Shown here piece by piece: positions 22,916 through 53,049 of a DNA stretch of 64,000 bases. The notes beneath the pieces are model-generated. The model did not search any database. It was not told where the DNA came from and worked only from the letters and a program-made list of their open reading frames with translations. The stretch is taken from the NCBI GenBank assembly GCA_040218735.1, contig JAVJQW010000011.1:1-64000 (forward strand). Reading direction: 5' to 3'. Source of the stretch: Deltaproteobacteria bacterium. GTDB taxonomy: Bacteria > Myxococcota > Kuafuiibacteriia > Kuafuiibacteriales > Kuafuiibacteriaceae. Numbering within the stretch: the stretch's first letter is position 1; each line of letters opens with the position of its first letter. A program made the translations under genes and the position numbers.

Positions 22916-24010
22916 ATGAAGCGGATCGCGATCCTCACCAGCGGCGGCGACGCCCCGGGGATGAACGCCGCCGTGCGCGCGGCGACCCTCCTCGGCATCG
23001 GCAACGGCCTAGAGGTCTTCGGCGTCCAGCACGGCTACCAAGGCCTGCTCGACGACACCCTCGTCGCGCTCGAGCCCCAACAGGTGCAGAGTGTCATCCG
23101 CGACGGCGGGACGATGCTCGGCTCCGCGCGCTGCCTCGACTTCCACAAGAAGGAGCGACGCGACGAAGCCCGCGCGGTGCTGAAGAACCGCGGCATCGAG
23201 GGGCTGATCGTCATCGGCGGCAACGGTTCACTCACCGGCCTCCTCGCGCTCACGGATCCGGCGGAGTGCGACATTCCACTCAAAGGAATCGGCATCCCGG
23301 CGTCGATCGACAACGACCTCGCGATCACGCGCCTCGCGATCGGCGTCGACACCGCCATCAACACGATCGTCGACGCCTGCGACAAGATCTCCGACACCGC
23401 CTCCGCCCACGACCGCACGTTCATCGTCGAAGTCATGGGTCGACAGTGCGGCTACCTCGCGATGACCTCCGCGATCGCGAGCGCCGCGAACGCCGTCCTC
23501 TTCCCCGAGATGGGCAAGTCCGAGGAGGAGGTCGTCGAGACCGTGGTGCGCGCCGTCGTGCGCGCGCAGCAACGCACCGAGCGCTCCAAACGTGTCCTGG
23601 TGATCAAGGCCGAAGGGGTCGGTATCCCGATCGAACGCCTGAAACAGCGCGTCGACGAACGCGTCCGCGAAGAGACCGGCCGCGACACCATCGAGACCCG
23701 CGTCACGGTGCTCGGCCACGTCGTGCGCGGCGGTCGCCCGTCGGCGCTCGATCGCATGATCGCGAGCCGCCTCGCGAACACCGCCGTCGAAGGCCTCCTG
23801 GCCGGGCACACGCGCATGATGACGGCGTGGACCCCGCCCGCGGCCGTCCCGCCCGATCACGTGCAGCGGACGCGCAATGACCCGCAGGTCTGCCTCGTCG
23901 ACCTCGCCTACACGCTGCAGGAGACACGCGCGATGCTCGACGGCACCAGCAACTTCGTGAAGTGGCGCAAGAAGGTCTTCGCGGAGATCGAGGAGGTCCT
24001 CTCACTCTGA
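22916..24010 (+). CDS. pfkA: 6-phosphofructokinase
   Basis: LTSGGDAPGMNA, GGNGS, SIDND, EVMGR and LGHVVRGG motifs. Confidence 0.95.
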   Translation: MKRIAILTSGGDAPGMNAAVRAATLLGIGNGLEVFGVQHGYQGLLDDTLVALEPQQVQSVIRDGGTMLGSARCLDFHKKERRDEARAVLKNRGIEGLIVIGGNGSLTGLLALTDPAECDIPLKGIGIPASIDNDLAITRLAIGVDTAINTIVDACDKISDTASAHDRTFIVEVMGRQCGYLAMTSAIASAANAVLFPEMGKSEEEVVETVVRAVVRAQQRTERSKRVLVIKAEGVGIPIERLKQRVDERVREETGRDTIETRVTVLGHVVRGGRPSALDRMIASRLANTAVEGLLAGHTRMMTAWTPPAAVPPDHVQRTRNDPQVCLVDLAYTLQETRAMLDGTSNFVKWRKKVFAEIEEVLSL

Positions 24011-26062: not shown

Positions 26063-26128
26063 TCTGCCACGTTCTGCGCGCCGGGGTTACCGCCGGAACA
26101 CGCAGCCCGTTATGCTCGCGGCGTTGTC

Positions 26129-36142: not shown

Positions 36143-36379
36143 TTAGGTGCTGACGAGGCAATAGCGACCGTCGAGCTGCACCACGCGCCACCGCGCGCCG
36201 CGCCACTCGACGACCTGCTCCGCGCCGACTTCGAGCTCGGTACCCGTGAGCTTCACGCGAACGACCAAACCGTCCTCGACGACCGCGCCGTCGTGCACGT
36301 CGATCGCCGGGACGCCGCGCGGCGCCTCGTCCGCGACCGGTGTCGTGCCTTCCGAGAAACGATTCGTCTTCGGCTTCAC
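36143..36379 (-). CDS. Small beta-rich hypothetical protein, last gene of the AAA operon
   Basis: GTG start overlaps the upstream TGA. Leader MKPKTNRF. Confidence 0.65.
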   Translation of the reverse strand: MKPKTNRFSEGTTPVADEAPRGVPAIDVHDGAVVEDGLVVRVKLTGTELEVGAEQVVEWRGARWRVVQLDGRYCLVST

Positions 36380-38289
36380 AGGCGATCTTCTCCGCGCACG
36401 AACCCGTCGGCCCCCGACGAGAACGACGCGACGTCGAAGTCGAACCCTTCGTCCTTCGGCGTCACCCCGACGATGACGGTTCTGAACCCCGGGAACAAGG
36501 CGACCTCACCGCGCGCACCTTCGAGGTCCCCCTCGGAGAACAGCGGCGACTCGTCCGGGTGCGAGTGCACCTTTGCGCGGATGTCGAGGCCGAACGCCTG
36601 TACCAGCCGGTCGACGTGTTCGACGTCCTCCGGGTGCACCACGCCCATCGAGTGGCCCATGTCCGTCCCGTGCAGCAGGTTCCGCACCGGCAGGAAGCGG
36701 TGCGCCGCGCCGTCGTAGACGAGGTACCCCATCCCCTCGAACGGGAACGCCTCGGCCATCGCCGACTTCATGTCCGCGACCACGCCGGGCTCGAGCCCCA
36801 GCTCGTTCGCCCCCAGGTTGCGCTCCAGCGCCTCCGTCTCGCGCACCGTCTGACGCGCGGCGATCGAAGCCTGCGCGAGCGCGTCGACGTGACCCGCGAG
36901 CTCCTGCGCGACGACCTCGATGCCGTCACGCTGACACTCGGCGACGAGACCATCGACCACGGCGTCGAGCGCACCTTCACCGCGCGCCCACTGCGCGAGC
37001 GCGCCGAGGCGCTCGGACGCCTTGCCCTCTCCGGGCGGGCCATAGCGTTCCAGCAGCGCGACCGTCCCCTGCCGAACCGCCGCCGAACGCGGCCCCGCGT
37101 CGCGGAACATCCGCGCGACGGACGCGAGCTCGGGCCGGCGCCCGATCGCATCACGGAGATCATCACCGATGCGGCGCAAGCCATCTTGCAACAGACGCGC
37201 GTGCAAGTGCTCCGCCTTCGCGCCGATCGGCCCCGGCGCGTCGAGGTCCGCGAACACCCGGCTCCCGTGCCGCGGGTCTGCGAGTGACGCAATCGTCGCC
37301 GCGACGTCCACGTTCGACGTGACCTCGGCGGCGAGCTTCGGGCCGAGGTGTTTCTCGAGCGACTCGAACACCAGACCCAGACGATCTCCAGCCAAGCGTT
37401 GCCGGTTCACCATCGCGACGAACACGTCGTCGTGGGACGGGCCCGCGACCGGATCCGAGAGCCCCTCCGCGATCCGCTGGGCCTGCGCCTGGAGGACCTC
37501 GGAACCCTTGGGATCGATCGTGAGTGCGCGCAGCGAGGCACCGGTCGCAGAACCTCCGCGCCGCGCCTCGATGTCCTCCATCGTCGCGAAACGCTCGTGC
37601 GCGGACTGCATGAAGTTCGCGAAGCCCGCGAGGTCGGAGGCGTCCGCGCCCGCGAGCTCGGTGAGGAACGTCTCCGCGGAGTCGATGCCACACGCCTGCG
37701 CGAGGGCCCCCCACGCAAACGGGGACGCGCGCCCCACGCGATCGATCAGCATCGCGAGATTCGACGTGTCGTCCTCGGCGGTGTGTGAAGCCACGACCGC
37801 CGTCGCGATCGAACGCCCGAGCGCGAGCTGCGCACCACCGCTGGTGTCGACGTTGGGACGCGGCGCCGCCGCCCGCATCAGCGCGGCGAAGCTCGTGGTG
37901 ATGCTCGCGTCGTCGCGCGCGAGGAGCTGCTCCGCGGCCTCTTCGGCCGTCATCAGCGGCGAGTGACCGCACAGGGTGTGAGCGACGTCGAAGAGCGCGT
38001 CCGAGAACGCCTGCCGATTGACCGTGCCGTCCTTGCCAGCCGCCAGGACACTCGCGAGCTTCGCGGACCCACCGCCTTCGGCCATGCGTTGTCCGAGCAC
38101 CGCCTCGAGCGCCCACACAAATTCGGTCTTGGCGTTGCCCGAGAACGCGGCCTTCTCGAACTGCGCCGCGAGCTCCGGTCCGAGGAGGTCCGCCGGTGTG
38201 GTGCGCGGCGCTTCGGGCTCCTCGGTCTTCGCGGTCCGTCGAACCCGGTTGGTGTTGTCCGCCGCGCCGGGTCCGCCCAGCGGTTTCAT
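36376..38289 (-). CDS. Large protein with C-terminal JAB/MPN+ (JAMM) metallopeptidase domain
   Basis: AFPFEGMGYL...VHSHPDESPLFSEGD fits E...HxH-x7-S-xx-D. ATG overlaps the radical SAM stop (ATGA). Confidence 0.85.
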   Translation of the reverse strand: MKPLGGPGAADNTNRVRRTAKTEEPEAPRTTPADLLGPELAAQFEKAAFSGNAKTEFVWALEAVLGQRMAEGGGSAKLASVLAAGKDGTVNRQAFSDALFDVAHTLCGHSPLMTAEEAAEQLLARDDASITTSFAALMRAAAPRPNVDTSGGAQLALGRSIATAVVASHTAEDDTSNLAMLIDRVGRASPFAWGALAQACGIDSAETFLTELAGADASDLAGFANFMQSAHERFATMEDIEARRGGSATGASLRALTIDPKGSEVLQAQAQRIAEGLSDPVAGPSHDDVFVAMVNRQRLAGDRLGLVFESLEKHLGPKLAAEVTSNVDVAATIASLADPRHGSRVFADLDAPGPIGAKAEHLHARLLQDGLRRIGDDLRDAIGRRPELASVARMFRDAGPRSAAVRQGTVALLERYGPPGEGKASERLGALAQWARGEGALDAVVDGLVAECQRDGIEVVAQELAGHVDALAQASIAARQTVRETEALERNLGANELGLEPGVVADMKSAMAEAFPFEGMGYLVYDGAAHRFLPVRNLLHGTDMGHSMGVVHPEDVEHVDRLVQAFGLDIRAKVHSHPDESPLFSEGDLEGARGEVALFPGFRTVIVGVTPKDEGFDFDVASFSSGADGFVRGEDRL

Positions 38290-39575
38290 ACCCCGTACTC
38301 CGAGCGGTCCGCGCCCACGACGACGGCGAGCCCGGCGTCCTTGAAGCGCTGCTGGGTCGACTCCACCTCTTCCGCGGTCACCGGCCGATCGATCTCTGGC
38401 GAGCGGAACGTCGTGAACGTCGGCGTCCACTGGTCCATCAGGTGGACGCGCATGTCCTTCGACACGGACGCGAGGAAGTCGGCGATCTTGCCGGAGTCGG
38501 TGACGTCATCCGGCATGATGAGGTGCCGAACGAGGAGCCCCTCGTACGCGACGCCGCGGTCGTCCTTCTTGAGATCGCCGACCTGCCGGTGCATCTCGCG
38601 CACGGCCTCCTGCACGTTGTCCCAGTAACCCTTCGTACCGCCGTAGCGCTGCCCCGCGTCGTTGTTCCCGAACTTCACGTCGGGGAGGTAGACGTCGACG
38701 ATGCCGTCGAGCTCCTTCAGCGCGTCGAGGTCTTCGTAGCCGCCTGTGTTGTAGACGAGCGGGATCTTCAGCCCCTGGTCGGCCGCCATCTGCACCGCCT
38801 CCAGGATCTCGACGATGAAGTGGGACGGCGTCATCAGCTGGATGTTGTGCGCGCCGCGGTCCTGCAAATCGAGGAAGGTCTCGGCGAGCTCCTTCACCTT
38901 GATGTCGTCGCCGCCCTTCATGTGCGCGATGTCCGCGTACTGGCAGAACGAACACGCCATGCTGCAGCTCGAGAAGTAGACCGTGCCGCTCCCCTGCACG
39001 CCGGAGATCTCACGCTCCTCGCCGACGTTCAGGTTCTTGCCGCCGATGCGCAGCGGCACCTTCTTGCGGAACACGCCGTACTTGTCGGTGTCGCGGATGT
39101 CCTTCAGACGGTCGATGCGCTCCTTCAGCTCGCCGCTCTGCGCGAGCGCAACGTAGCTTGCGGGACGGAAGACGTCGTCCGCTCCGCCCGGCCAGTCGAC
39201 GCGGAACTCCGCGAGGCGCGCCTGCTGCTTTTCGTCCATGCAGATGGCCTGCGCGAGCGGCACCTGCTCCATGGTGAGGTCGAGGAACTCGAGCGTCCCG
39301 TCGTCCCGGATGTGCAGCGAACCCTGGTCGTAGCTGACGTCGCTCTTCGCAATCGTCCGCAGCGCGACCAGCGACTCCTTCTCCGCGGGGGTCGCCTTCT
39401 TGTACGGCGTCCGCTCCTGCGAGGACGTAGCCGCGCGTTCAAAACCGCCCTGCCCGGCCGGCGCCTTCGCCTTCTTCTTCGGCGCGGACGCAGACGACGC
39501 ATCGCCCGAGCCGCGCACCTGGGTGCCCGACTCGGTCGGCGTCGCCCCGCCGGTCTTGCGGCTCGCGCGGGTCAC
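38286..39575 (-). CDS. PflX-like (COG1313) radical SAM protein with N-terminal extension
   Basis: GEE..ISG..GSGTVYFSSCSMACSFCQ, GAHNIQLMTPSH, VYNTGGY, DVYLPDVK and LLVRHLIMP motifs. Confidence 0.88.
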   Translation of the reverse strand: MTRASRKTGGATPTESGTQVRGSGDASSASAPKKKAKAPAGQGGFERAATSSQERTPYKKATPAEKESLVALRTIAKSDVSYDQGSLHIRDDGTLEFLDLTMEQVPLAQAICMDEKQQARLAEFRVDWPGGADDVFRPASYVALAQSGELKERIDRLKDIRDTDKYGVFRKKVPLRIGGKNLNVGEEREISGVQGSGTVYFSSCSMACSFCQYADIAHMKGGDDIKVKELAETFLDLQDRGAHNIQLMTPSHFIVEILEAVQMAADQGLKIPLVYNTGGYEDLDALKELDGIVDVYLPDVKFGNNDAGQRYGGTKGYWDNVQEAVREMHRQVGDLKKDDRGVAYEGLLVRHLIMPDDVTDSGKIADFLASVSKDMRVHLMDQWTPTFTTFRSPEIDRPVTAEEVESTQQRFKDAGLAVVVGADRSEYGV

Positions 39576-39576
39576 G

Positions 39577-39858
39577 CTACTGCTTGGAGGCGTTGAGGCC
39601 GACCTCGCCGCGCACGACCTTGCCCGGATCGTCCGGCTTGTCCTCGAACCGATCCGTGTTGCGCGCCTCGGTGATCTCCAGCCCTGCGAGCGACTGGAGC
39701 GCCGCGTAGTGCAGCGCCGCGCACGCGTCGCCGATCCCCTGGCCGCTGTGGTCGCTGATCTCGACCTTGTCGCCCGTGATCGAGATGTTCATCTGGACGT
39801 CCACCACGTAGGTGCCGTCGGTCATCGCCTTGAAAGGCTTCGCTCGAATATCGCTCAT
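39577..39858 (-). CDS. DUF2997-like small protein
   Basis: ISITGDKVEI..GQGIGDACAALHYAAL..LAG..ITEARNTDRF resembles the DUF2997 pattern. GAGGAG RBS upstream. Confidence 0.55.
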   Translation of the reverse strand: MSDIRAKPFKAMTDGTYVVDVQMNISITGDKVEISDHSGQGIGDACAALHYAALQSLAGLEITEARNTDRFEDKPDDPGKVVRGEVGLNASKQ

Positions 39859-39868
39859 CTCGTGCTCC

Positions 39869-40540
39869 TCAGGTCTGGACCATGGCGCGACGCCGACGCG
39901 CCGCAACCGCCGCGCGCGTCCGCTCGGGCATCTTCAGATCCCCGGAGTGCTGCGCGATGACACCCGCCGCCTGGCTGGACGCCTTCGGGTTCACGACCAC
40001 CTTGGCGGTGAACTTGATGTCGAGGCCGCCGTCCGGACGGACGACGACGTTCGGCTCCACCATCATCTGCGGGTTCTTCTCGATGTGCGTGAGCACCTGC
40101 CCCGCGCGCGCGAGCTGCACGACCTTCTTGATCGCGGCTTCGACCTTCGCCTGCGTGAGCCCCACCGCGCTCGCGGTGATCGTCGCCTGGCCGTTCTCAC
40201 CGGCCTGGTACTGGAGCGTGAGCCCGTCGACGCTGATGTTGTTGCCGTTCACCTTCACGTCGAGGCTCGGGATGCGCGAGTCGGAGAGCGCCTTGTTCAC
40301 GTCCTCGAGGTTCACGCTCATCTGCGCCTGCACGCGGTTGGGCTGCGGAGCGCGGTACACGACCTGCGTGTAACCGTACGTCCGCCGCGACTGCACCGCG
40401 CCCGAGAAAGCCGCGAACGCCGCACCGGCCTCCGCTCCGACCCCCTCGGTCGTCGACGCCGCCTGCGTCGCCTGCGCCGCCGGCTGACCGCTCTCGACCT
40501 CACCGGCCGCGAATCGTCCGTTGTCGTTCTTGATCTTCAT
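39869..40540 (-). CDS. DUF1257/Ycf35-like protein with N-terminal leader
   Basis: NLEDVNKALSD...IKKVVQLARAGQVL...RPDGGLDIKF resembles the DUF1257 architecture. GGAG RBS. Start MKIKNDNGRF. Confidence 0.5.
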   Translation of the reverse strand: MKIKNDNGRFAAGEVESGQPAAQATQAASTTEGVGAEAGAAFAAFSGAVQSRRTYGYTQVVYRAPQPNRVQAQMSVNLEDVNKALSDSRIPSLDVKVNGNNISVDGLTLQYQAGENGQATITASAVGLTQAKVEAAIKKVVQLARAGQVLTHIEKNPQMMVEPNVVVRPDGGLDIKFTAKVVVNPKASSQAAGVIAQHSGDLKMPERTRAAVAARRRRAMVQT

Positions 40541-40544
40541 GCCA

Positions 40545-43043
40545 TCACTCCTGCGGCGGCGCCGCGTCATTCTCGACGACGTTCACCGGTACGCCTTCGC
40601 CGACATCCGGGGCCGACGCATCCTTCTTGATCGTGCGCGACTTGCCTTCGAGCGCGTCGCGAATCCCTGCGCTGTCGATCTGCTTGAGGACCTCCGCGAT
40701 GAGGTCCTTCGGCACGTGCGAGCGCACGAGCCGCAGCACCTCGCGGTCCCCCTTGTCGGCGGCGGCGCGAACCAGGCCGACCATCGCTTTCTCGGTCATC
40801 AGGTTCGGCACGGCGAGCCTCAGCGCCGCCTCCAACCGAACCATCGCCTGGTGCTGCCCCGCGTCCATGTCCTTGACGTCCGTCCCGACGGTGTCGTCCG
40901 CCATCTGGACGATCGCGTCGCGCGCCAGCTTCGTCGTCTCGACAGAACCCGCGAACGCGAGCGCGATGGACGACGGGTCCTGCTTCAGGTCGACCATGTT
41001 CCCGAGCTCTTCGCGGTTCGCGAACTTCCCGAGATCACCGATCGCGCGCGCGAGGCTCACGTGCCCCTGCGGCTGCCGAAGCACCAGCTCCGCGACGCGC
41101 CGCACGCTCCCCGAGAGCAGCTCGACATTCGATACGGTCTTCAGCGCTGCGAGCGCGTCGGCCGCGCCGTTGACCGAGACGTTCGCGCCGCCCCACTGCA
41201 CGTTCTGCGGTCCGTTGGCCTGCGGGACCTCCTCGACCAGCTTGTCGAGGAGCTCGTTGGCCTTGTTCATCGAGCCGATGTCGTCACCGTGCCGCGCGAG
41301 CACGCCGACGAGCCCGGCGACGAACGGCGACAACCTGAAGCCCGCCCCTTCGACCGCGGTCTGGACCTTCGACACGAGGTCCTCGGTCTGCTCGGGCGAA
41401 AGCGGCGCGTCCGCGTTCGTCAGCGCGTTGAGGATGCGCTGCGCGGCCGGGAGCTGCATCGGTTTGTTGGGATCCAGCGCGACCTCGATGCCGCGGAGGT
41501 AGCTCTGGCCGATCCACTCCTCGGTCGGCTTCTTGCCGAGCTTGCCCCCCTCGGCGAGCGCTTCGAGGCCCGCGTCCGTCGCCGCGGCGAACATCCGCGC
41601 CTGGCGCGCCGGGTTCTGACCGTCGTCGATCTCGTCCCACAGCTCGTCGAAGAACAGCTCGTACGCCTTGTCGAACTGACCGTGCTCCAGGAAGCCGGTG
41701 ACGGCCGCCTCGAGCGCGTTGAGCTTCGTCGTCGCGTTCGTGATGAACTCACGAATCATCTCGACGGCCTTGTCCGCCACGGCGGGATCCCGCGTGAGCT
41801 GACCGACGAGCGACTGCATCGGCCCGTCCTGGTCCATCGCGGCCGCCTGCAGCATGAGCGCCTGGCCCATCTCACACGCGGCGCGGTGCCCCTCCTTCGC
41901 GTCCTTGCTCTCGAGGTCGGGGTAGACCGTCCCGATCAGCTTCACGAAGCGCGCGACGTTCTGGTTGAACGCCGTCACCTCGGTCTTGTGCGCCTTGTAG
42001 GGCGTGCCGTCCTCCTGCGCCTTCGCCTCCGTCAGGACGCCGAGCGCCTCGGGCATGCGCGCGAACAGCTCCGCGTCCTTCTGCGACACCTCTAGCGCCG
42101 AGCCGAAGGCGGCGATCGCCGGAGCGTCGAGCGGCGCCGTCCGCTTCGTCGCCCCCTCGATCATGTTGTCGAGGTGCGCCGCGATACGGCCGCGCGCGGC
42201 CTTGACGTCCGTCGCCTTGCTCGACCCGAGGAAGATCGCGTCGACCTCGATCTGCTTGGCGCGACCGGTCTCGCCGTCGATCTCCTTCGCGAGGCGAGTC
42301 GCCTCGCGGTTGTACTCCATGACCTCGGACTTGGTGGAGCCGAGGTCCGTGAGCTTCGTCAGCGCTTCTTTCAGGACGTTGAGCGCCGCCTCGCGGTTCT
42401 CCGGCGTGCGGTTCTCCGCGACCTGCACCGACTGCACCGCCGCCTTCGCCATGCGCACCAGGAACTCACTCTGCGCCTCGGGCGCGAGGCCGGGCGTCGC
42501 CGCCATCTGGCGGAGCGTCCCGATCAGCTGCATCGGCTCGTCGAGGTACGCCTGGATGTCGGTGTTGCGCTCGATGATCTCGAGGCCCAGCCGCGTCATG
42601 TCGACCTCGGCCGAGTCACGCAGCTCACGCATCTCGCCGAGGTGTTTGTCGAACTCGTCGAGGAAGTCGACGACGAGGGTCCGCTGCAGCACCACGTCCG
42701 CGTCGGCCTTCTTCTGCGCCGACGCCTTCGCGCTGCCCGACGCGATCATCGCGAGGTAGCCCTTGAACGCCATCAACAGCAGCGGGTCCTGCAGGACCTT
42801 CTCCTGGAACGCGACGTCGAGCCGGTCGGCGCCGACGATCGCCTCCTTCGCCTCGCGCAGCTTCTCTTGGAACTGCTCGGTGGTGATGCGCTTCGAGAAC
42901 ACCCCCGAGTCGTTGCCGAACAAACGCGTCGCCGCCTTGTCGACGACCGCGGTGAGGTCCGAGAGGCCCACGCGCTGGGTCGACGCCGCCTCGGACGTGA
43001 CGTTGGCGCCGGGTGAGAACCGGTTTCCGTTCTGAATCTTCAT
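40545..43043 (-). CDS. 832-aa all-helical hypothetical protein
   Basis: Strong codon bias, amphipathic or coiled-coil helices, GGGGAGAG RBS. No recognised domain. Confidence 0.8.
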   Translation of the reverse strand: MKIQNGNRFSPGANVTSEAASTQRVGLSDLTAVVDKAATRLFGNDSGVFSKRITTEQFQEKLREAKEAIVGADRLDVAFQEKVLQDPLLLMAFKGYLAMIASGSAKASAQKKADADVVLQRTLVVDFLDEFDKHLGEMRELRDSAEVDMTRLGLEIIERNTDIQAYLDEPMQLIGTLRQMAATPGLAPEAQSEFLVRMAKAAVQSVQVAENRTPENREAALNVLKEALTKLTDLGSTKSEVMEYNREATRLAKEIDGETGRAKQIEVDAIFLGSSKATDVKAARGRIAAHLDNMIEGATKRTAPLDAPAIAAFGSALEVSQKDAELFARMPEALGVLTEAKAQEDGTPYKAHKTEVTAFNQNVARFVKLIGTVYPDLESKDAKEGHRAACEMGQALMLQAAAMDQDGPMQSLVGQLTRDPAVADKAVEMIREFITNATTKLNALEAAVTGFLEHGQFDKAYELFFDELWDEIDDGQNPARQARMFAAATDAGLEALAEGGKLGKKPTEEWIGQSYLRGIEVALDPNKPMQLPAAQRILNALTNADAPLSPEQTEDLVSKVQTAVEGAGFRLSPFVAGLVGVLARHGDDIGSMNKANELLDKLVEEVPQANGPQNVQWGGANVSVNGAADALAALKTVSNVELLSGSVRRVAELVLRQPQGHVSLARAIGDLGKFANREELGNMVDLKQDPSSIALAFAGSVETTKLARDAIVQMADDTVGTDVKDMDAGQHQAMVRLEAALRLAVPNLMTEKAMVGLVRAAADKGDREVLRLVRSHVPKDLIAEVLKQIDSAGIRDALEGKSRTIKKDASAPDVGEGVPVNVVENDAAPPQE

Positions 43044-43070
43044 GACTGTTCGCTCTCCCTGACCTCGGCG

Positions 43071-45308
43071 TCAGACCGAATCCATGGCCGACGGGTTCAC
43101 CCCCGCGCGCCGCGCCGGACGCTCCGCCGAGGGCGCCTCGCCCTGCTGCGCCGCCGGTGCCACCGGTGCCTCGCCCGTGCTCGGGTCGAGGATCGCCTTC
43201 CCGCTCGCCGACTCGTACGCCGACGCCTGCGCCAGGATGACCTGCGCTCGGAACGGGTCCTTCTGGTAATCCGTGCGGTACCCCTCGAGGCCCTTCTCGA
43301 TGTCCTTCAGCGAGATGACCTCGTCCTGGTCCGGACGATCCACCAGCGCGACTTCGCGGGCCGCGTTGATCGCGTGGTAGACCTCGCGACCCGAGATCGT
43401 CGGGAACGCCTCCACCAGCTTCTTGATCTGCGCCGGCTTGAGATCGTGCCCGTCCGTGAGCGCGTCGAGGTTCGACTTCCAGATGTCGGCGAGCCCCTCG
43501 GCGTCCTGGTAACCGACGAAGTACTTCGCCGGCGAACGGCTGACGAACGCGCTCGACAGCTTCTGCGGCTCGTTGCACGTGCCGAGCAGGAGGATGTCGC
43601 TCTTGTGCTCCTCGATCCACGTGAGGAGCAGGCCGTGCACGCGGTCGGTCACGCCGCCGTCGTGCGCGCTCGTGCCCTCCGCCGAACCGCCGAGCGCCTT
43701 CTCGATCTCGTCGAGCCACACCACGCAGGGCGCGAGCGACTCGAGCAGCTCGAACATCCGCGCGAAGTTCGACTCCGACTCTCCGACGAACTTGTTGAAG
43801 AGCTTCGCGAGGTCGACCTTCACGAGCGGCATGTCGAGCTTCGACGCCGCGCTCTTCGCGACGAGTGACTTACCCATGCCGGGCACACCGGCGAGGAGCA
43901 TCATCTTCGCGGCCTGCAGCGGCTTCTTGCGGGTCTGACCGGCCTTGAAGACCGCGCGCAGGCGGTCGAGCTTGTTCATCACCGCGCCGAGGCCCATCGG
44001 CTCCGGCATGTTCGGGTCGTGGCGGACGAGCTCGATGTTGAAGTTCTTCTTCAACATGTCGAAGCGACGCCGCGAGATGAACTCGAAGTCGATGCGCCGG
44101 TCCGAGCTCCCCGACGCGCGGCTCACGGCCTCACCCATGAGGTCCTTCGCCTGGTGCGTCGTGAAGCCGATCAGCTGCTGCGAGAGATCCGGGAGCGTCT
44201 TGCCCTCGGGCAGGAACTCCTTGAACTGGTCGAGCGTGATCCCGTCCGCGATCGCGTTCCGGATCATGCCTTCCTTGAGGTCGTCGCCGACGACCTCAAG
44301 CCAGGCGCCGATCTCCTTGTCGGTGACGTCCTCGGGCGCCTTCTCCTCGCCCGCCGCGCGACCCCACAGGTAGCCGGTGACGGAGCCGAACACGAGCCCG
44401 GCCATCATCCGCTTGGTGGGCATCGGCATCGAGTAACCCGAGCCGAGCTCCGCGGCGGTCGTCGGCATCATCGACGGACCGTCGTTGAAGATGATGTGTT
44501 TCGTCGTCGACGTGGTGTCCATGCGACCGCGCATGTCGACGAGCTGCTGGTAGATGCGCCCGTTGCCGACGGCGCCGTCGAGGTCCGCGCGCAGGTGCGG
44601 CCCCATACCGTTGAGCGTGAAGATGATGCGACCGCGTTTGTCCTGGTTGCCGGCCTGGACCCGGTCCACGGCCTGGAGCGTCTCGTTGGGGCTGAGCAGA
44701 TCGTTGATCGCGTCGGTGCCGTCGCTGCCGTACAGGAGGCGCTGCAGCCCCTTGTTGTTGTACGTGCTGCGCTCGGTCTCGTCCGTGAGGTCCTTGTACG
44801 GGACGACCGTACCGTTGTCGTCCGAGTACGCGACCGGCGTGCCGTCCTGCGGGTACAGCTCGAGCCACCCGCCCGCCGAGGACCAGGTGATGAGGCGGAC
44901 CGGCCCCGCGTCGACGTCTTCACGCGCGAACGTCCCGGCGACCTTGACCGAGGCCGCGAGCACGCGGTCGGGCTGCGTGCCTTCGCTGAAGATGTACGGC
45001 TGGCCGCCGTGCACGTGGTAGTAAAGCTCGGCCGACGGGTTCTCCGCCGCGGACTTGCTGCACACCGCGCCGATGGAAGCGAGGCGCCCCTCGAAAGCGT
45101 CGAGCGTCTTCTGCATCGCCGCCGCGATCGCGCCCAGCGCACCGCCCTGCTTGCGGGTGGGGTTGAACCGGCCGCCCTGCGGATCCGGTAGACCGCTCGC
45201 GGCCTGGAAGCCGAGTTGCTCGGCGCCGCGCTGTTGGGTCTCGGCGACCGGCGTGGCTTCGTTCGCCCCGCCGGCATTCGTCTTCAGGCCGTCGTTCTTC
45301 AGCTTCAT
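43071..45308 (-). CDS. Ycf46-family AAA+ ATPase with N-terminal leader
   Basis: GVPGMGKSLVAK, VGESES, APCVVWLDEIEK and DGGVTDRVHGLLLTW are Ycf46-type motifs. Confidence 0.88.
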   Translation of the reverse strand: MKLKNDGLKTNAGGANEATPVAETQQRGAEQLGFQAASGLPDPQGGRFNPTRKQGGALGAIAAAMQKTLDAFEGRLASIGAVCSKSAAENPSAELYYHVHGGQPYIFSEGTQPDRVLAASVKVAGTFAREDVDAGPVRLITWSSAGGWLELYPQDGTPVAYSDDNGTVVPYKDLTDETERSTYNNKGLQRLLYGSDGTDAINDLLSPNETLQAVDRVQAGNQDKRGRIIFTLNGMGPHLRADLDGAVGNGRIYQQLVDMRGRMDTTSTTKHIIFNDGPSMMPTTAAELGSGYSMPMPTKRMMAGLVFGSVTGYLWGRAAGEEKAPEDVTDKEIGAWLEVVGDDLKEGMIRNAIADGITLDQFKEFLPEGKTLPDLSQQLIGFTTHQAKDLMGEAVSRASGSSDRRIDFEFISRRRFDMLKKNFNIELVRHDPNMPEPMGLGAVMNKLDRLRAVFKAGQTRKKPLQAAKMMLLAGVPGMGKSLVAKSAASKLDMPLVKVDLAKLFNKFVGESESNFARMFELLESLAPCVVWLDEIEKALGGSAEGTSAHDGGVTDRVHGLLLTWIEEHKSDILLLGTCNEPQKLSSAFVSRSPAKYFVGYQDAEGLADIWKSNLDALTDGHDLKPAQIKKLVEAFPTISGREVYHAINAAREVALVDRPDQDEVISLKDIEKGLEGYRTDYQKDPFRAQVILAQASAYESASGKAILDPSTGEAPVAPAAQQGEAPSAERPARRAGVNPSAMDSV

Positions 45309-45387: not shown

Positions 45388-45393
45388 ATTATA
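45388..45393 (-). promoter_or_regulatory. Candidate -10 box (TATAAT) for the AAA operon
   Basis: Perfect TATAAT 80 bp upstream of the 45308 start, in an AT-enriched intergenic stretch. No clear -35. Confidence 0.45.
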
Positions 45394-49525: not shown

Positions 49526-51185
49526 GCTCGATCAGGTTCTTCGCGCCCGGCGTCGCGCGGCGGAGGTTGGCGTCCAGGAGGCGCCGCGGACCGTCTGTCT
49601 CGGGGAGCGCATCGACGAGCGTGCGCGCGCGCTCCAGGTCGCCGGCTTCGAACGCCGTCGTCGCTTCCTCGTAGGTCGACCACACGTCTTCGGGCTCGGT
49701 CGCGAGCTGGTGGAGCACGACAGCGTCGTCGATCCCCACGACCCGCACCGCGCCGATGCGGCGGGTGGCGACCGCGTCCCCGACGAGCGCACGCGTCGCC
49801 TCGGAGAGGAGGATCGAGACCCCGGCGTGTTTCGTCGCGCCCTCGATGCGGCTCGCGAGGTTTACGGTGTGCCCGCGCGGACCGTACTTCTGGCGCTTCT
49901 TGCTGCCGGCGTTGCCGACGCGCGCCGGTCCGGTGTGTACGCCGACGCCGATCGCGAGCGGCGTGCCGAGACGCTCGCGCCACTTCGCATCGAGCGCGCG
50001 CAGGTCTTCTTGCATGCCAATCGCCGCGCGGCAGGCGCGCACGGCGTGGTCGTCGTACTCGATCGGTGCGTTCCACATCGCGGCCATGCCGTCGCCGTAG
50101 TAGTCGATGATGACGCCACTCTCCTGGAGCACACGCTCCGTGAGCACGTCCATCACCTCGCCCACGAGCTGAAACGTGGACGCCCCGTCGAGCTGTTCGG
50201 ACAGCCGCGAGAATCCGCGCAGGTCTGAGAACAACACGGTGATGACGCGGTCCGCGGGCTCCAGCATCTTCGGGTTGCGCTGCAGCTCGCGGACGAGCTC
50301 CTGCGAGAACACCCGCTCGAACTGCACGCGCAGGCGGCTCGCCTCCGCGGCCTGCTCCTGGCGAGCGAGCCCCGCCGACACCGCAGCGGCGAGCACCCGC
50401 ACGACCTGCGCTTCGAGGGGCATGATCGCCGGCGACGGGACGCCGGGTCGCCGGTCGCGTGCGCCGAACACCGCGCCAATCACTTCGTTGTCACCGTCGA
50501 GGATCGGAGAAGCGACGAACGCGTCCACGGCGGCGAGGCTCGCGACGGTGGTGTCGGGCGCCTCGAACACCGTCTGCTTCGTGGTCTGCAGCTGCGCGAG
50601 GACCGTCTGACTGTACTCGGCCTGGCCCGCAGGATGTGCAGCGGCGACGGTCCATTCGTCGGCGCGTCGCAGCAGGACGATCCCGCGGTCGAGGCCGATG
50701 AGATCGACGATCGCCCGCGCGGTCTGGTCGTAGAACTCCGCGGACCCGGCGGCGGCCTGCTGCACCGAGACCAGCGTCGTGAACCACTCCGCGAGCTGCT
50801 CGGGCGTGGGGGTGCGCTCCAGGACGATCGCGCGGGTCTGCAGCTGGATCGTCTGCATCCGCGCGGAGGCCTTCGCGGGCGACGCGGTGACGTGGGCGCG
50901 GACCTCGATCTTGGTGGTCCCGGTCTGGACCGCGATGGGCAGCGCGTAGACCTCGCTCCCGTTGGTGGCGAGGGGCTGACCGTTCACGGTGATCGGCTGG
51001 CCGTAGTTGGTCACGCGCGCGCCGCCGCCGGCCTCCTCGACCGACAGCTGCGTCCGCGACACGTGCGGGTCTTCGATCACGAAGCTGCGCCCGATCCCCT
51101 TCGGTGCACGGCCGAAGATCATGGGGCCGCGGTCGTTCCGGAACGTGTGGTTCTGCTGCGCGTTGCCGACCGTGAACTCGAGCAT
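49512..51185 (-). CDS. Class III adenylate/guanylate cyclase with FHA and GAF domains
   Basis: FGR..VSR (FHA), VLFSDLRGFSRLSE, YYGDG and GHTVNLASRIE motifs. Confidence 0.9.
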   Translation of the reverse strand: MLEFTVGNAQQNHTFRNDRGPMIFGRAPKGIGRSFVIEDPHVSRTQLSVEEAGGGARVTNYGQPITVNGQPLATNGSEVYALPIAVQTGTTKIEVRAHVTASPAKASARMQTIQLQTRAIVLERTPTPEQLAEWFTTLVSVQQAAAGSAEFYDQTARAIVDLIGLDRGIVLLRRADEWTVAAAHPAGQAEYSQTVLAQLQTTKQTVFEAPDTTVASLAAVDAFVASPILDGDNEVIGAVFGARDRRPGVPSPAIMPLEAQVVRVLAAAVSAGLARQEQAAEASRLRVQFERVFSQELVRELQRNPKMLEPADRVITVLFSDLRGFSRLSEQLDGASTFQLVGEVMDVLTERVLQESGVIIDYYGDGMAAMWNAPIEYDDHAVRACRAAIGMQEDLRALDAKWRERLGTPLAIGVGVHTGPARVGNAGSKKRQKYGPRGHTVNLASRIEGATKHAGVSILLSEATRALVGDAVATRRIGAVRVVGIDDAVVLHQLATEPEDVWSTYEEATTAFEAGDLERARTLVDALPETDGPRRLLDANLRRATPGAKNLIELTSK

Positions 51186-51198
51186 CGAAGTACGGTAT

Positions 51199-53049
51199 AT
51201 GCGATGCGTGGACCGCACGCACTTCGACGTCACGCCGGGCGTGCAGATCGGTGAGTACGTCGTCGAGAAGGAGCTCGGGAGCGGGACCTTCGGCAACGTC
51301 TACAAGGCCGTCCACCCGCTGATCGCGAAGAAGGTCGCGATCAAGGTGCTCTCCGCCGACTACTCGAAGAACGAGGAGGTGGTGTCTCGGTTCGTGACAG
51401 AGGCGCGCGTCGTCAACGAGATCGGCCACAAGAACATCATCGACACGTTCTCGTTCGGCGAGCTCCCCGATGGGCGCCAGTACTTCGTGATGGAGTACAT
51501 CGACGGCGAGCCGCTCGACGAATACATGGCGCGCTTCGACGGCCAGGTCCCGCGGGCCGACACCCTCGCGATCCTCGAAGGGGTCGCCGCCGCGCTCGAC
51601 GCCGCGCACGCCGCGGGGGTCACCCACCGCGACCTGAAACCGGCGAACGTGTTCGTCGCGAACGACGACGGTCGCCCCTTCGCGAAGCTCCTCGACTTCG
51701 GCATCGCGAAGCTGCGCTCCGACGAGATGGAGCAGAAACACCGCACGGCGACGGGCATGGCGCTCGGCACGCCGGCGTACATGGCGCCGGAGCAGTGCCA
51801 GGGCCACGCGGTGGATCACCGCGCGGACATCTACGCGCTGGGGGTGATGACGTACCAGCTGCTGACCGGGGAGCTCCCGTTCGACGGGACCGCGTTCGAG
51901 ATCCTGATGCACCACGTGCAGACGCCGCCGCCGTCGATCGGCGACGCGACGCTGCCCGGGACGCTCGTCCCGATCGTGAACGGGATGTTGGAGAAGGATC
52001 CGGCGATGCGGCCGCCCTCGGCGGGGTTCGCGATCGAGCGCCTCGTCGAGATGCTCGGGAGCCAGCAGAACACCGCAGCGTCCGTCGCGACCGCGGCGCT
52101 GCCGGCCGTCACGGCGACGATGACGCCCGCCCCCGCCGTCGCCGCGCCGTCCGAGCCGGAGCCGAAGCGTCGTACGGGGATGATCGTCGGCGCGCTCGGC
52201 GTGTTCGCCTTGGTCGGCGTCGGTGCCTTCGCGCTGACGCCCAAGGATCCGCCGCCGCCGCCCGAGAAGAAGCCGGCCGCCATCGAGCCGCTCGCAGCCG
52301 CGATGCACGCGGTCCCCGCCGGCGACTTCCTGATGGGCTGCAACGCCGAGGTCGACGCCGAGTGTGACGAGGACGAGCCCAAGCTACGCTCGACGCCCGT
52401 CGCCGCGTTCGAGATCGACGAGACCGAGGTGACGGTCGAGGCGTACGCGAAGTGCGTCGACGCGGGCGCGTGTGACGCGGAGGGCCTCGACACCCCGTTC
52501 TGGAAGGAAGGCGACGAGCCGGAGAAGGCGCACCCCGAGTGGGCGCACGCCTGCAACTGGGGCAAGGACGGCCGGAAGAGACGGCCGATCAACTGCATCA
52601 CCTGGGCGCAGGCGGACACGTTCTGCCGGTGGCAGGGCAAGCGCCTCCCCACCGAGGCGGAGTGGGAGAAGGCTGCGCGCGGAACGACCGGCAAGAAGTA
52701 TCCGTGGGGCAACGACGGCTTCGACAAACTCTCCGCCCCCGTCGCGAACATCGCGGACGTCGCGATGAAGAAGGCGCGCGACGTCGCCTGGGCACACGCG
52801 ACCTACGACGATGGCGCGGAGCTGTCCGTCGACGCCGGACAGCTCACCGCGGGCGCGTCGCCCTACGGCGCGCTCGACATGATCGGCAACGTCTCCGAGT
52901 GGACCGCCGACTGGCACGACCCCGGCAAGACCCGGGTCACCCGCGGCGGCTCCTACGACAAACCGGCACAGATGGCCCGCGCGTCGTTCCGCAACGCGTC
53001 GTTCCCGACCTGGCGCCAAGACGACGTGGGGTTTCGGTGTGTCCGATGA
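51199..53049 (+). CDS. Ser/Thr kinase with TM helix and extracytoplasmic FGE-sulfatase (SUMF1) domain
   Basis: GSGTFG, VAIK, HRDLKPAN and DFG motifs. RLPTEAEWEKAARG, DMIGNVSEW and VGFRCV. Start 51199 or 51208. Confidence 0.92.
   Translation: MRCVDRTHFDVTPGVQIGEYVVEKELGSGTFGNVYKAVHPLIAKKVAIKVLSADYSKNEEVVSRFVTEARVVNEIGHKNIIDTFSFGELPDGRQYFVMEYIDGEPLDEYMARFDGQVPRADTLAILEGVAAALDAAHAAGVTHRDLKPANVFVANDDGRPFAKLLDFGIAKLRSDEMEQKHRTATGMALGTPAYMAPEQCQGHAVDHRADIYALGVMTYQLLTGELPFDGTAFEILMHHVQTPPPSIGDATLPGTLVPIVNGMLEKDPAMRPPSAGFAIERLVEMLGSQQNTAASVATAALPAVTATMTPAPAVAAPSEPEPKRRTGMIVGALGVFALVGVGAFALTPKDPPPPPEKKPAAIEPLAAAMHAVPAGDFLMGCNAEVDAECDEDEPKLRSTPVAAFEIDETEVTVEAYAKCVDAGACDAEGLDTPFWKEGDEPEKAHPEWAHACNWGKDGRKRRPINCITWAQADTFCRWQGKRLPTEAEWEKAARGTTGKKYPWGNDGFDKLSAPVANIADVAMKKARDVAWAHATYDDGAELSVDAGQLTAGASPYGALDMIGNVSEWTADWHDPGKTRVTRGGSYDKPAQMARASFRNASFPTWRQDDVGFRCVR

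Follow-up and report, generated by a model that had tools for sequence, protein, structure and literature searches.

Why should several proteins of one operon, most of them without a recognised family, begin with similar short hydrophilic peptides? The question is raised by a seven-gene block on the minus strand of the window, the whole 64,000-nucleotide stretch of DNA that was analysed. A sequence-only reading of this DNA had proposed that the operon proteins share a leader by which they are co-exported by a non-Sec route. The conservation of these N-termini was therefore compared among homologues and across the genome, and export was weighed against other roles that such a peptide might have.

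A rare and compact operon

The block and its seven genes are as follows.

36143-45308, minus strand: tightly packed seven-gene operon, gene order A, B, C, D, E, F, G
43071..45308, minus strand: gene A, 745-aa classical-clade AAA+ ATPase
40545..43043, minus strand: gene B, 832 aa, N-terminal tag and conserved C-terminal tail
39869..40540, minus strand: gene C, 223 aa, tag, about 57 disordered residues, alpha/beta core
39577..39858, minus strand: gene D, 93 aa, the best conserved of the seven
38286..39575, minus strand: gene E, 429-aa radical SAM enzyme
36376..38289, minus strand: gene F, 637 aa, a region of about 490 aa without a family, then a C-terminal JAB/JAMM domain
36143..36379, minus strand: gene G, 78 aa, tag, short linker, small domain reading as beta-rich
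45388..45393, minus strand: perfect TATAAT hexamer in an AT-richer 147-bp gap upstream of A

The operon is one unit, conserved and rare across the phylum. The block is present in two of 401 genomes of the phylum and in two of 41 relatives, and separate searches with F, with a profile of B and with the N-terminal region of A each returned the same two of the 401. These are the window genome (G000) and G011, the sole other full operon found, so that two full operons could be read. Conservation is confined to the seven genes, with different flanks in the two genomes, and the block contains no gene for secretion, a sheath or a shell. Identity to the G011 orthologues falls from 59% for D and 58% for E through 49% (A), 39% (G) and 38% (B) to 30% for F.

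All six of the translation starts quoted in the sequence-only reading exist as read, with ATG at 45308, 43043, 40540 and 38289 and GTG at 36379 and 39575. Shine-Dalgarno-like purine runs stand 7-13 nt upstream of the starts of B, C and D, and the starts of F and G overlap the preceding stop codon (ATGA/GTGA). Homologues further back three of the starts: that of B by their N-termini, that of C by 5/5 sequences beginning MKI[KQ], and that of G by the independently called homologue P0009. The TATAAT hexamer may be the promoter -10 box of the operon; a consensus scan, finding no matching -35 box upstream of A, left it unlisted.

The N-terminal tag of B, C and G

It is clear that three of the proteins carry the same N-terminal motif, a genuine one that far exceeds what chance would give. 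It has a hydrophobic residue near position 3, followed by [N/T/G]-R-F at residues 7-10 and usually by a Gly 1-5 residues past the Phe. The tags, and a word shared by two of the N-termini, lie at these positions.

43008..43043, minus strand: tag of B, MKIQNGNRFSPG, residues 1-12
40502..40540, minus strand: tag of C, MKIKNDNGRFAAG, residues 1-13
36347..36379, minus strand: tag of G, (M)KPKTNRFSEG, residues 1-11, its GTG start overlapping the stop codon of F
45240..45254, minus strand: TPVAE in the disordered N-terminus of A, residues 19-23
36329-36343, minus strand: TPVAD in G, the same word as TPVAE of A

The genome-wide search for such starts that had been suggested was run over the start codons of ORFs of at least 50 aa. 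The strict pattern.K[ILPVM][KQ][NT].{0,4}R[FV], which was written after the data had been seen, has three matches in the 11.6-Mb genome, and all three are B, C and G. Of 410,998 candidate starts, 15 match the shorter pattern MK[ILP][KQ][NT], also chosen post hoc; four of these are the starts of A, B, C and G, and the other matches are mostly at internal positions.

The tag is kept across homologues while adjacent residues drift. Eighteen homologues of B cover the N-terminal region, and 11 of these have [NT]RF at residues 7-12, down to 23-30% identity; elsewhere in these proteins of about 840 aa it occurs only once, and its background in crude coding ORFs is 0.22 per 1000 aa. In a 14-sequence alignment of B, NRF is the sole stretch before about residue 29 with majority-residue columns. 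Furthermore, the Arg is encoded by CGG, CGA, CGT and CGC across six copies in two genomes. Since 11/18 homologues keep the motif, NRF forms majority columns and the Arg codons vary, the tag is, as judged from these comparisons, selected as a peptide. The tag also appears to be dispensable in some B homologues: seven of the 18 have no [NT]RF, and three (P0010, P0013 and P0019) lack any Phe-containing variant, so it is not indispensable.

The tags read NRF in B, GRF in C and NRF in G of the window, and TRFQ in all three proteins of G011, where G has ...KPTRFQ with its Phe at residue 9. On two Logan-derived contigs, C homologues with ..AF are paired with B homologues that have lost the Arg (HTF, SLL). 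The tag copies of one genome thus appear to change together, on a comparison of very few independent lineages. All five C homologues (5/5) have a Phe at residue 8-10 after the MKI[KQ] start, and P0009 starts as the window G does. A Gly follows the Phe by 1-5 residues in 14/17 tag copies (RFTG, RFQG, RFSPG, RFAAG, RFSEG, RFSQG, RFRAG), where about half would be expected from composition on a rough estimate; in 3/17 it is missing within five residues.

The shared leader that had been seen throughout the operon does not extend to the enzymes. A shares MKLKN only, and its G011 orthologue begins MKTEAPGKKP; E begins MTRASRK... in the window and MSGTKK... in G011, and F begins MKPLGG...NTNRV and VKVRLPVAL..., respectively. 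All three have disordered N-terminal stretches that are not conserved between the two genomes. The claim therefore stands for B, C and G, with D as a possible fourth, and fails for A, E and F. D had been described as DUF2997-like and as the only leaderless protein. It starts MSDIRAKPF, both orthologues conform to M-[ST]-D-I-R-A-K-P-F, whose ninth residue is Phe, and it is thus not clearly leaderless; NTDRF at residues 67-71 is also invariant in both. As for DUF2997, D has no Pfam match, and when it was compared by hhalign with eight true DUF2997 proteins, the 53 aligned columns scored E 0.12, so that the assignment was not borne out. The words said to be shared fared differently. TPVA[ED] is rare, with nine occurrences among the 2.9 million residues of the crude coding ORFs (two of them in this operon), and has counterparts in SPIAE of the G011 A and TPIAD of P0009, whereas AAST is common (167 occurrences in the same ORFs) and already gone in 91%-identical homologues.

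From the sequences of two full operons and very few independent lineages, the tag appears to mark the proteins without a known enzymatic domain. B, with 19 homologue clusters among 1.84 billion representatives, C, with three homologues among 5.8 billion proteins in addition to that of G011, and G, with one homologue (P0009, 91% identical) beside the G011 orthologue, have no match in Pfam or NCBIfam. The description of a hydrophilic shared peptide followed by disorder, resembling a targeting or recognition peptide, was borne out for these proteins by the conserved motif and by a model of C, of low confidence (pLDDT 61), in which residues 1-57 are mostly below pLDDT 50 and so are modelled as disordered.

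Enzymes of the operon and alternative roles for the tag

The catalytic motifs of A, E and F are intact.

43866..43889, minus strand: Walker A of A, GVPGMGKS, residues 474-481, 8/8 invariant in the 3-sequence alignment A5
43782..43793, minus strand: pore-loop-1-like K-F-V-G of A, residues 506-509, read from sequence
38943..38966, minus strand: CX3CX2C cluster motif of E, C204, C208 and C211, all invariant in alignment A6
36526..36567, minus strand: JAMM motif of F, HSHPDESPLFSEGD, residues 575-588, with an upstream Glu at residue 518

A begins with a disordered stretch, continues with about 400 aa of no recognised fold and has its single AAA module at about residues 456-680 (PF00004, 93.7 bits, residues 470-599), whose best solved relatives are Cdc48/p97 D2 domains (E 5e-29). 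G509 and E512 are invariant in alignment A5. Given its Walker A and Walker B motifs, its KFVG and the Cdc48 D2 matches, A looks competent as an unfoldase. In the distant relative P0021 the pore-loop aromatic is replaced (GILG), which speaks against A as reader of the tag. The model of A is poor (pLDDT 53; below 50 for residues 1-112), and neither it nor that of C (pLDDT 61) is good enough to reveal a docking site for the tag. A is directly followed by B in both the window and G011, and in a distant relative the two frames are fused into one 1454-aa product with MKII...TNF at the junction.

E matches PF04055 with 39.4 bits (cut-off 29.5); about its first 55 residues show little conservation, and a conserved, unassigned stretch begins at about residue 57 and reaches to the radical-SAM core. 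Its nearest NCBIfam models are glycyl-radical-enzyme activases, with NrdG2 (22.9 bits, cut-off 131, E 4.5e-5) ahead of the PflA and hydroxyproline dehydratase activase models; the nearest solved chain, PflA, is not significant. There is no match to TIGR04337, nor to SPASM or a known leader-binding domain in Pfam and NCBIfam. In F, PF14464 covers residues 512-609 (33.4 bits, cut-off 25), the MPN family protein of PDB 2kcq matches at E 1.7e-4, and the residues E518, H575, H577, S585 and D588 do not differ between the window and G011. Among the 401 genomes, full-length F is found only in G000 and G011.

One possibility, which we consider distinctly unlikely, is that the tag directs export or cargo loading through a system whose genes lie elsewhere in the genome, be it type III, flagellar-type or a contractile injection system. 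A check for secretion loci did find six full and one partial FHIPEP (FlhA/SctV) genes and four sheath-like matches, and the leaders resemble the published composition rules for type III signals, being polar, with much Ser, Thr, Asn and Gln, and having either Pro or an aliphatic residue as residue 3. Type III signals, however, usually share no conserved sequence motif. Furthermore, none of the loci (0/7 FHIPEP, 0/4 sheath matches) is on the 520-kb contig of the window, FHIPEP occurs in 20/21 relatives as against 2/41 for the operon, G011 carries the operon and yet has no Phage_sheath_1 match, and the window genome gave no encapsulin shell match. The operon's flanks are not shared with G011, the enzymes A, E and F lack the motif, and genome-wide it is on no gene other than B, C and G. 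Payloads of the PVC system are reported to have N-terminal signals that act with an AAA ATPase. On the whole the proposed non-Sec co-export finds no positive support, and the tag probably serves another purpose than export. Selection at the level of the mRNA or of translation initiation, which in this genome of 69% G+C would favour A-rich early codons with little structure and leave the peptide without a function, is very improbable. MK starts are frequent in bacteria, Lys, Ile and Asn have A-rich codons, and GC3 is lower over the first 12 codons of B, C, D and G (0.67-0.75) than over the remainder of these genes (0.89-0.96); but such selection would at best account for MK[IL]K and not for N-R-F, whose Arg and Phe persist through synonymous codon changes and at 23-38% identity, and the motif is missing from the genome's other candidate starts.

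Alternatively, the tag may be the target site or recognition leader of E, which would bind this flexible peptide and modify a residue in R-F-x(1-4)-G before F or A processes the product, a RiPP-like logic applied to whole proteins; this too is unlikely. Glycyl-radical activases, the only family-level matches of E beyond its superfamily, target a Gly that sits in an R-V-x-G context within a protein loop. A Gly appears enriched after the tag Phe, and E is the second-best conserved protein, including the region ahead of its radical-SAM core. Against this, the activase matches are all far below their family cut-offs, the likeness to R-V-x-G is short, the Gly varies in position and is at times missing, and E has no SPASM or known leader-binding match. 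In related multi-component systems, Kaur et al. 2020 predict peptide modification by radical SAM enzymes, which favours such a role for E. Removal of the tag by F, with a cut after the Gly past NRF giving mature B, C and G, seems less probable still. The metal site (E...HxH...S..D) is intact in both genomes and F must therefore have a substrate; no ubiquitin-like protein, E1 or E2 was found in the block with Pfam and NCBIfam, so the usual JAB substrates are missing; and JAB enzymes cleave after a C-terminal Gly, which often follows the tag motif. However, known JAB peptidases recognise a folded ubiquitin-like body rather than a free 10-residue peptide, the Gly spacing is loose and F is the least conserved operon protein. 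It is also distinctly unlikely that the tag is a self-assembly strand inserting into a neighbouring B, C, D or G, by donor-strand exchange or head-to-tail, with A controlling assembly or disassembly. The hydrophobic residue near 3 and the Phe near 9, with an N/G-rich turn between, are strand- or hairpin-like, D carries its related start fused directly to its fold, and B has a conserved C-terminal tail motif as well; yet the models of C and A, both low in confidence, give no structural support for strand insertion. Assembly is favoured by the proposal of Kaur et al. 2020 that N-terminal adaptor domains common to the components of one operon couple them by homotypic contacts, although those adaptors are domains and the tag is a motif of about 10 residues.

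A proposed recognition tag within the system

The reading that we prefer, tentatively and with a probability of about 0.35, is that the tag is a recognition tag internal to the system, marking B, C and G and read by the AAA+ unfoldase A. The hydrophobic residue near position 3, [N/T]-R-F within residues 7-12, the usual Gly 1-5 residues later and a disordered linker of 15-55 residues would single out these non-enzymatic products as clients for the machinery that the operon itself encodes. The likeliest reader would be A, as an unfoldase of the Cdc48/FtsH type; it could dock the tag and use the neighbouring disordered stretch to engage, remodel or assemble the clients, while E (radical SAM) and F (JAMM peptidase) may also work on these proteins. 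All of this would take place in the cytoplasm. The binding of the tag, its reading by A and the fate of the clients are what we infer from this arrangement.

A tag at the extreme terminus followed by disorder is the layout read by AAA+ unfoldases, as in the substrates and adaptors of ClpX and Cdc48, and the tags of B, C and G have this same layout. In the PVC papers, the N-terminal signal peptides of payloads are likewise reported to work with the AAA ATPase of the operon, Pvc15.

Composition of the seven-gene operon

The window, about 69% G+C, comprises the opening 64 kb of a contig of 520 kb; the genome measures 11.6 Mb in 70 contigs. Seven minus-strand genes, A to G, are packed between 36143 and 45308, where they overlap or are separated by gaps of at most 27 bp; their third-position G+C of 0.87-0.94 indicates that all seven frames are coding.

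Genes of the operon, with coordinates, strand and length of the product
43071-45308, minus strand: A, AAA+ ATPase, 745 aa
40545-43043, minus strand: B, no known family, 832 aa
39869-40540, minus strand: C, no known family, 223 aa
39577-39858, minus strand: D, no known family, 93 aa
38286-39575, minus strand: E, radical SAM protein, 429 aa
36376-38289, minus strand: F, JAB/JAMM protein, 637 aa
36143-36379, minus strand: G, no known family, 78 aa

A is a classical-clade AAA+ ATPase, Cdc48-like and with its motifs intact, that bears a large N-terminal region without assignment. Its one classical AAA module scores 93.7 bits with PF00004 (cut-off 21.2) and, among solved structures, comes closest to the D2 domains of Cdc48/p97 (E 5e-29); A carries the motifs Walker A GVPGMGKS and Walker B D533-E534, both invariant, as well as a pore-loop-like K-F-V-G. 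Membership of the IetA/IteA anti-phage ATPases was rejected, since NF042959 matched just the AAA module, at 71.4 bits where the cut-off is 510, and the PADLOC IetA model gave 70.5 bits. Residues 227-455 gave no significant match, and the structure model (pLDDT 53) was of too low a confidence for a fold to be judged there or for the N-terminal region to be interpreted; a match of that region to a designed helical repeat was dismissed because it arose only in sum, each single stretch being insignificant.

E belongs to the radical SAM superfamily: it scores 39.4 bits with PF04055, whose cut-off is 29.5, and the cysteines of its CX3CX2C motif, C204, C208 and C211, are invariant; comparison with the PDB gave no significant match. 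Two narrower assignments were rejected. As a glycyl-radical-enzyme activase E scores only 22.9 bits against 131 with NrdG2 and 15.4 against 232 with PflA, the PDB entry for PflA being reached at E 0.11; as an AmmeMemoRadiSam enzyme it is missed by the TIGR04337 model at E <=0.01, although that model finds a true member elsewhere in the genome, on contig C21, at 596 bits. The C-terminus of F is a JAB/JAMM domain (PF14464, 33.4 bits against a cut-off of 25) in which E518, H575, H577, S585 and D588 are invariant in both genomes that carry the full operon.

None of the remaining products, B, C, D and G, could be placed in a Pfam, NCBIfam or PADLOC family, so that four of the seven lie outside any known family. 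An HrpD5 match for C (19 bits against a cut-off of 300) was dismissed as compositional, and no relationship between B and F was detected by hhalign. The AlphaFold model of C has a pLDDT of 61, with residues 1-57 mostly below 50; a wide fold search with it returned nothing at Z >=5, just generic two-layer alpha/beta matches. Look-alikes in the ESM Atlas gave no usable lead for D (best score 0.79, with a pLDDT of 0.42 for its own model) or for B (best 0.78, no model). Within the seven proteins no family match was found to MoxR, vWA, E1, E2 or ubiquitin-like components, though a very divergent vWA domain could escape such models, and no Clp-, Lon- or 20S-type partner protease is encoded with the operon.

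D had been described as DUF2997-like and as the one product that lacks a leader, and both descriptions are uncertain. The PF11211 model misses both D and its orthologue. D can be aligned with DUF2997 by eye, and alignment by hhalign against eight true DUF2997 proteins of the same phylum covers 53 columns at 25% identity, not significantly, with E 0.12 and a probability of 0.5%; what the two have in common is a G..G..C...LG pattern and a T-x-[ED]-[RY]-[FY] ending. Models of DUF2997 and DUF1257 matched neither D nor C; in the rest of the genome DUF2997 gave two weak matches, and DUF1257 gave none genome-wide. D is the best conserved product (59%), with an invariant NTDRF at residues 67-71 followed by a variable tail. 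It is not obviously leaderless, both orthologues starting M-[ST]-D-I-R-A-K-P-F with Phe at position 9, joined straight to the fold. This start and the NTDRF are both loosely similar to the tag of B, C and G described below.

A histidine kinase and response regulator pair lies immediately upstream of the operon, and an HMG-CoA-synthase-like gene lies downstream. The 147-bp gap between the histidine kinase gene and A is AT-richer and contains a perfect TATAAT at 45388-45393 on the minus strand, which is absent from the consensus scan's list for this strand. Elsewhere in the window, a single plus-strand ORF at 51007-53049 joins a Ser/Thr protein kinase domain to a C-terminal FGE-sulfatase (formylglycine-generating-enzyme-like) domain, and two more kinase genes are found at 24002-27610.

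An N-terminal motif in B, C and G

The sequence-only reading had held that the operon products, enzymes included, share an N-terminal leader. All of the starts it quoted are present in the sequence, and the leader stands for B, C and G, the only three genes in the genome to carry the strict pattern; it does not stand for the enzymes. B begins MKIQNGNRFSPG, C begins MKIKNDNGRFAAG and G begins MKPKTNRFSEG, and from these a tag can be defined with a hydrophobic residue near position 3, [N/T/G]-R-F at residues 7-10 and usually a Gly 1-5 residues later. A shares just MKLKN, and MKTEAPGKKP opens its orthologue in G011, the second genome with the full operon. E and F do not keep their N-termini in G011 either, though each protein has a low-complexity N-terminal extension in both genomes. 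The start codons of the three tagged genes are backed by homologues: those of C begin MKI[KQ] in five of five cases, those of B begin alike, and P0009, a homologue of G whose start was independently called, begins MKPKTNRF.

It is clear that the motif is common to B, C and G beyond chance. When the strict pattern was sought at the start codons of ORFs of at least 50 aa, three matches were obtained in the whole genome, and these are B, C and G. Of 410,998 candidate starts, 15 have the shorter MK[ILP][KQ][NT]; A, B, C and G account for four, and most of the others are internal codons and not gene starts. In a crude proteome of 2.9 million residues [NT]RF has a frequency of 0.22 per 1000 residues; about 0.02 would be expected in the first 14 residues of the seven proteins, and the number observed is three when C's GRF is taken together with the NRF of B and G, but the exact odds are inflated since the patterns were composed after inspection of the data. 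The evidence from homologues is independent of that choice.

Two words that had also been put forward as shared fared differently from each other. TPVA[ED] is rare, with nine occurrences in the crude proteome of which two are those of A and G, and it is retained as SPIAE in the A of G011 and as TPIAD in P0009. AAST is common (167 occurrences) and is already gone in homologues that are 91% identical. Residues 1-56 of A (45141-45308, minus strand) are disordered and contain two islands kept between two genera, [ST]P[VI]AE and LGF.AA.G.P.P; the former recurs in G as TPVAD.

The only N-terminal NTRF found beyond the operon is in an ORF at G000:C23:367769 on the plus strand of another contig of the same genome. 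It appears unrelated to the tag; the ORF resembles the flagellar assembly factor FliW, and the FHIPEP gene at C23:323241 is some 42 kb away.

Distribution of the operon and conservation of the tag

The block is rare and moves as a unit. Full-length F, a 14-sequence profile of B and the N-terminal region of A were each found in the same two of 401 genomes of the phylum, that of the window and G011. In the organism's class two of 20 genomes were positive, and searches of its order and class, 20 genomes each, gave no positives beyond the same two. The seven genes of G011 stand in the same order with different flanking genes, the identity between the two operons being 49% for A, 38% for B, 34% for C, 59% for D, 58% for E, 30% for F and 39% for G. 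C has three homologues among 5.8 billion clustered proteins, and an exhaustive profile search with B returned 19 representative clusters among 1.84 billion proteins. Among species-representative genomes the only further operon was that of G011; none was seen in JGI metagenome contigs (searched twice), in viral contigs or, by tblastn with B, on plasmids and phages. The whole operon was recovered on one 47.8-kb sponge-metagenome contig (X2) at around 99% identity (76 differences and one gap in 9301 bases, ~99.2%). Fragments were also seen in aquaculture, biofloc and other runs belonging to four or more further studies, and no RNA runs are listed among the public runs with operon sequence.

Across the homologues of B the tag is the conserved part of a variable N-terminus. 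[NT]RF is present at residues 7-12 in 11 of the 18 for which the N-terminal region is available, and elsewhere in these proteins of ~840 residues it is seen once only; in the 14-sequence alignment NRF is, before about residue 29, the sole stretch with columns that reach a majority residue. Of the B homologues without it, four have variants (HTF in P0007, QNF in P0012, TNF in P0021 and SLL in P0006), and P0010, P0013 and P0019 have no such motif. The Gly follows 1-5 residues after the Phe in 14 of 17 readable copies of the tag. Residues 1-57 of C, mostly modelled at pLDDT <50, suggest that the tag is carried on a flexible tether.

In the six copies of the two full operons Arg is encoded by CGG, CGA, CGT and CGC and Phe by TTC or TTT. 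These differences in codon usage point to selection on the peptide and not on the RNA; they also rule out gene conversion between the leaders as what keeps the copies alike. Furthermore, the copies change jointly within a genome: the window has NRF in B and G with GRF in C, G011 has TRFQ in all three, and on two Logan-derived contigs C homologues with ..AF are paired with B homologues with HTF and SLL, so that Arg is absent throughout. Such joint change, although the lineages are few, is the pattern that would be expected if all copies fit one receptor.

One of the variants, P0021, is a protein of 1454 aa on a 26-kb contig in which an A-like part (28% identity to A residues 227-736, E 4e-55) is in frame with the B-like part; the junction reads ...ELS-MKIIDSSTTNF... 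and so still has MKII...TNF. This is probably a read-through or a lost A stop codon rather than a designed fusion, and it shows only that A and B have long been adjacent. At the opposite end of B, the last ~20 residues (40545-40610, minus strand) have a conserved P-D-x-G-E-x-x-P-V-x-V-V...P-P-x-E in homologues, and B thus seems to carry a second linear motif there.

The operon has a real, conserved and operon-specific N-terminal linear motif on three, perhaps four, non-enzymatic products. Short linear motifs that join the products of one bacterial operon are rarely recognised from sequence alone, and the one found here connects an unfoldase, a radical SAM enzyme and a JAMM peptidase with three proteins that belong to no known family.

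Candidate roles of the tag and likeness to known systems

The leaders had originally been read as type III or flagellar-type export signals, or as cargo-loading signals. The genome does have machinery of this kind, with six full-length genes and one partial gene for FlhA/SctV (FHIPEP), all above the cut-off, and four phage-sheath-like matches on contigs C9 and C20; none of the seven FHIPEP or four sheath matches is on the contig of the window (C55), and no sheath, tube or baseplate gene is found among the seven genes or the flanking genes of the window. Nor do apparatus and operon occur together: FHIPEP is present in 20 of 21 relatives, whereas the operon is present in two of 41 relatives and two of 401 genomes of the phylum, and G011 has the operon with no Phage_sheath_1 match. 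The motif is on no other gene of the genome, and the three enzymes that were thought to be co-exported do not have it. With neither linkage nor co-occurrence and with untagged enzymes, the interpretation as type III or flagellar-type signals is unsupported; we regard export as unlikely, as we do loading of cargo. Were the tag to turn out to direct export, its sequence would be unusually well defined for such a signal. Other routes were discarded from the sequence of the leaders, which are polar throughout with a single Arg and have neither the hydrophobic stretch or twin arginine of Sec/Tat signals nor the hydrophobic segment that follows the Gly of prepilin-type leaders. The encapsulin shell (Linocin_M18) had no matches in this genome, which is 96.5% complete. 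The FHIPEP genes are on contigs C23, C59, C41, C70, C38, C9 and C16; this number of type III/flagellar export gates is unusual for one genome, and all 12 of the same-family genomes searched have FHIPEP matches, two to seven each.

The reading that we prefer, with a probability of roughly 35%, is that the tag is a recognition peptide internal to the system, which would be read most probably by A and would recruit B, C and G, and that E and F may act on the same clients. A short terminal motif followed by an unstructured stretch is the layout of the tags and tethering peptides that are read by AAA+ unfoldases, such as those on the clients and cofactors of ClpX and Cdc48. This reading was adopted because the tag is borne by the proteins with no recognisable enzymatic domain and not by the three enzymes, because its layout is that of a terminal tag and because A is Cdc48-like; A also directly precedes B in both operons. 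We infer binding of the tag, the identity of its reader and the fate of the clients: A would dock the tag of B, C and G and, driven by ATP, would remodel or assemble them, and E and F would act on these same clients. Complex prediction with A residues 57-455, E 76-429, F 480-637 and, as the partner, residues 1-32 of B scored 0.00 in both runs; with four chains and shallow alignments, this counts neither for nor against binding.

Alternatively, the reader could be one of the enzymes. That E recognises the tag as the target of its radical chemistry is doubtful; glycyl-radical activases target a Gly that stands in an R-V-x-G context, to be compared with R-F-x(1-4)-G in the tag, and beyond its superfamily the only matches of E are to glycyl-radical-enzyme activases, all far below their cut-offs (NrdG2 at 22.9 bits against 131), with PflA as its nearest solved chain at E 0.11. 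For F, an intact JAMM peptidase with no ubiquitin-like, E1 or E2 partner detected, the corresponding proposal is that it removes the tag after the Gly, which we think distinctly improbable. The two enzymes have also been combined into a single scheme in which the operon would be a maturation machine on the scale of whole proteins with a logic like that of RiPPs: E would use radical chemistry to modify the flexible N-R-F-x(1-4)-G tag of three otherwise unrelated proteins, with a glycyl radical as one possible product, after which these proteins would be processed or released by the JAMM peptidase and the Cdc48-like unfoldase. This too is improbable; if true, whole proteins would be modified under the guidance of a leader, which would constitute a new class. 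It may be, instead, that the tag mediates self-assembly by strand insertion, as its strand-like pattern and the related N-terminus of D hint, but we do not think this likely. A pure effect on the initiation of translation is very improbable: in B, C, D and G GC3 is 0.89-0.96 beyond the first 12 codons and falls to 0.67-0.75 within them, with no drop in A or E, and this is the one observation in its favour, while it leaves N-R-F unexplained.

The module of AAA+ ATPase, radical SAM enzyme and JAMM peptidase is rare and undescribed, and an internal recognition tag appears to be the best explanation of its motif. Should the enzymes locate their clients through the tag, what the whole system does would become directly accessible to experiment, and degron-like tags and leader-guided modification would be extended to a new machine.

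The only match in the literature to this combination of genes or to the motif was the work of Kaur, Burroughs, Iyer and Aravind (2020, eLife 9:e52696). The part of that paper available to us describes, as the published class of gene neighbourhood nearest to this operon, FtsH-type ternary conflict systems, present in deltaproteobacteria among other groups, that combine a classical-clade AAA+ protein with JAB, radical SAM and lineage-specific helical proteins; the radical SAM enzyme is predicted to modify a peptide, and shared N-terminal adaptor domains are proposed to couple the components of one operon. Set beside that description, the present operon is alike in having AAA+, JAB and radical SAM proteins, lineage-specific alpha-helical proteins and a shared N-terminal module. 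It differs in that the defining MoxR and vWA components are undetected, E is not of the Memo-AMMECR1 type and the shared element is a motif of ~10 residues and not a domain. The ATPase of that class also has an inactive AAA domain N-terminal to the active one; in A, residues 227-455 ahead of the AAA module gave no significant match. Because MoxR and vWA are undetected, E falls outside TIGR04337 and the motif is not a domain, we have not filed the operon under the FtsH-type ternary class as so described.

A second likeness is to PVC, an extracellular contractile injection system, where the N-terminal signal peptides of the payloads are reported to act together with Pvc15, the AAA ATPase of the operon, which offers a published precedent for the preferred reading; N-terminal leaders and a classic AAA ATPase encoded in the operon are found here also. 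Unlike in PVC, genes for sheath, tube or baseplate are missing from both block and window, the leader motif is conserved in sequence, and just one AAA module can be recognised in A. Type III and flagellar signals resemble the tag in being N-terminal, hydrophilic and disordered, and the genome has several FlhA/SctV paralogues, but the motif here is conserved in sequence, confined to one operon and unlinked to apparatus genes.

Finally, the tag may be compared with the tags and docking motifs of AAA+ proteins. ClpX recognises N- and C-terminal degrons and the tethering peptides of adaptors, and the N-domain of Cdc48/p97 is bound by short motifs of its cofactors. Whereas no Clp, Lon or 20S protease is present here and nothing in the N-terminal region of A detectably resembles a known substrate-binding domain, the operon is like these systems in having a short terminal peptide, a flexible stretch behind it, several unrelated bearers and a Cdc48-like AAA+ protein alongside.
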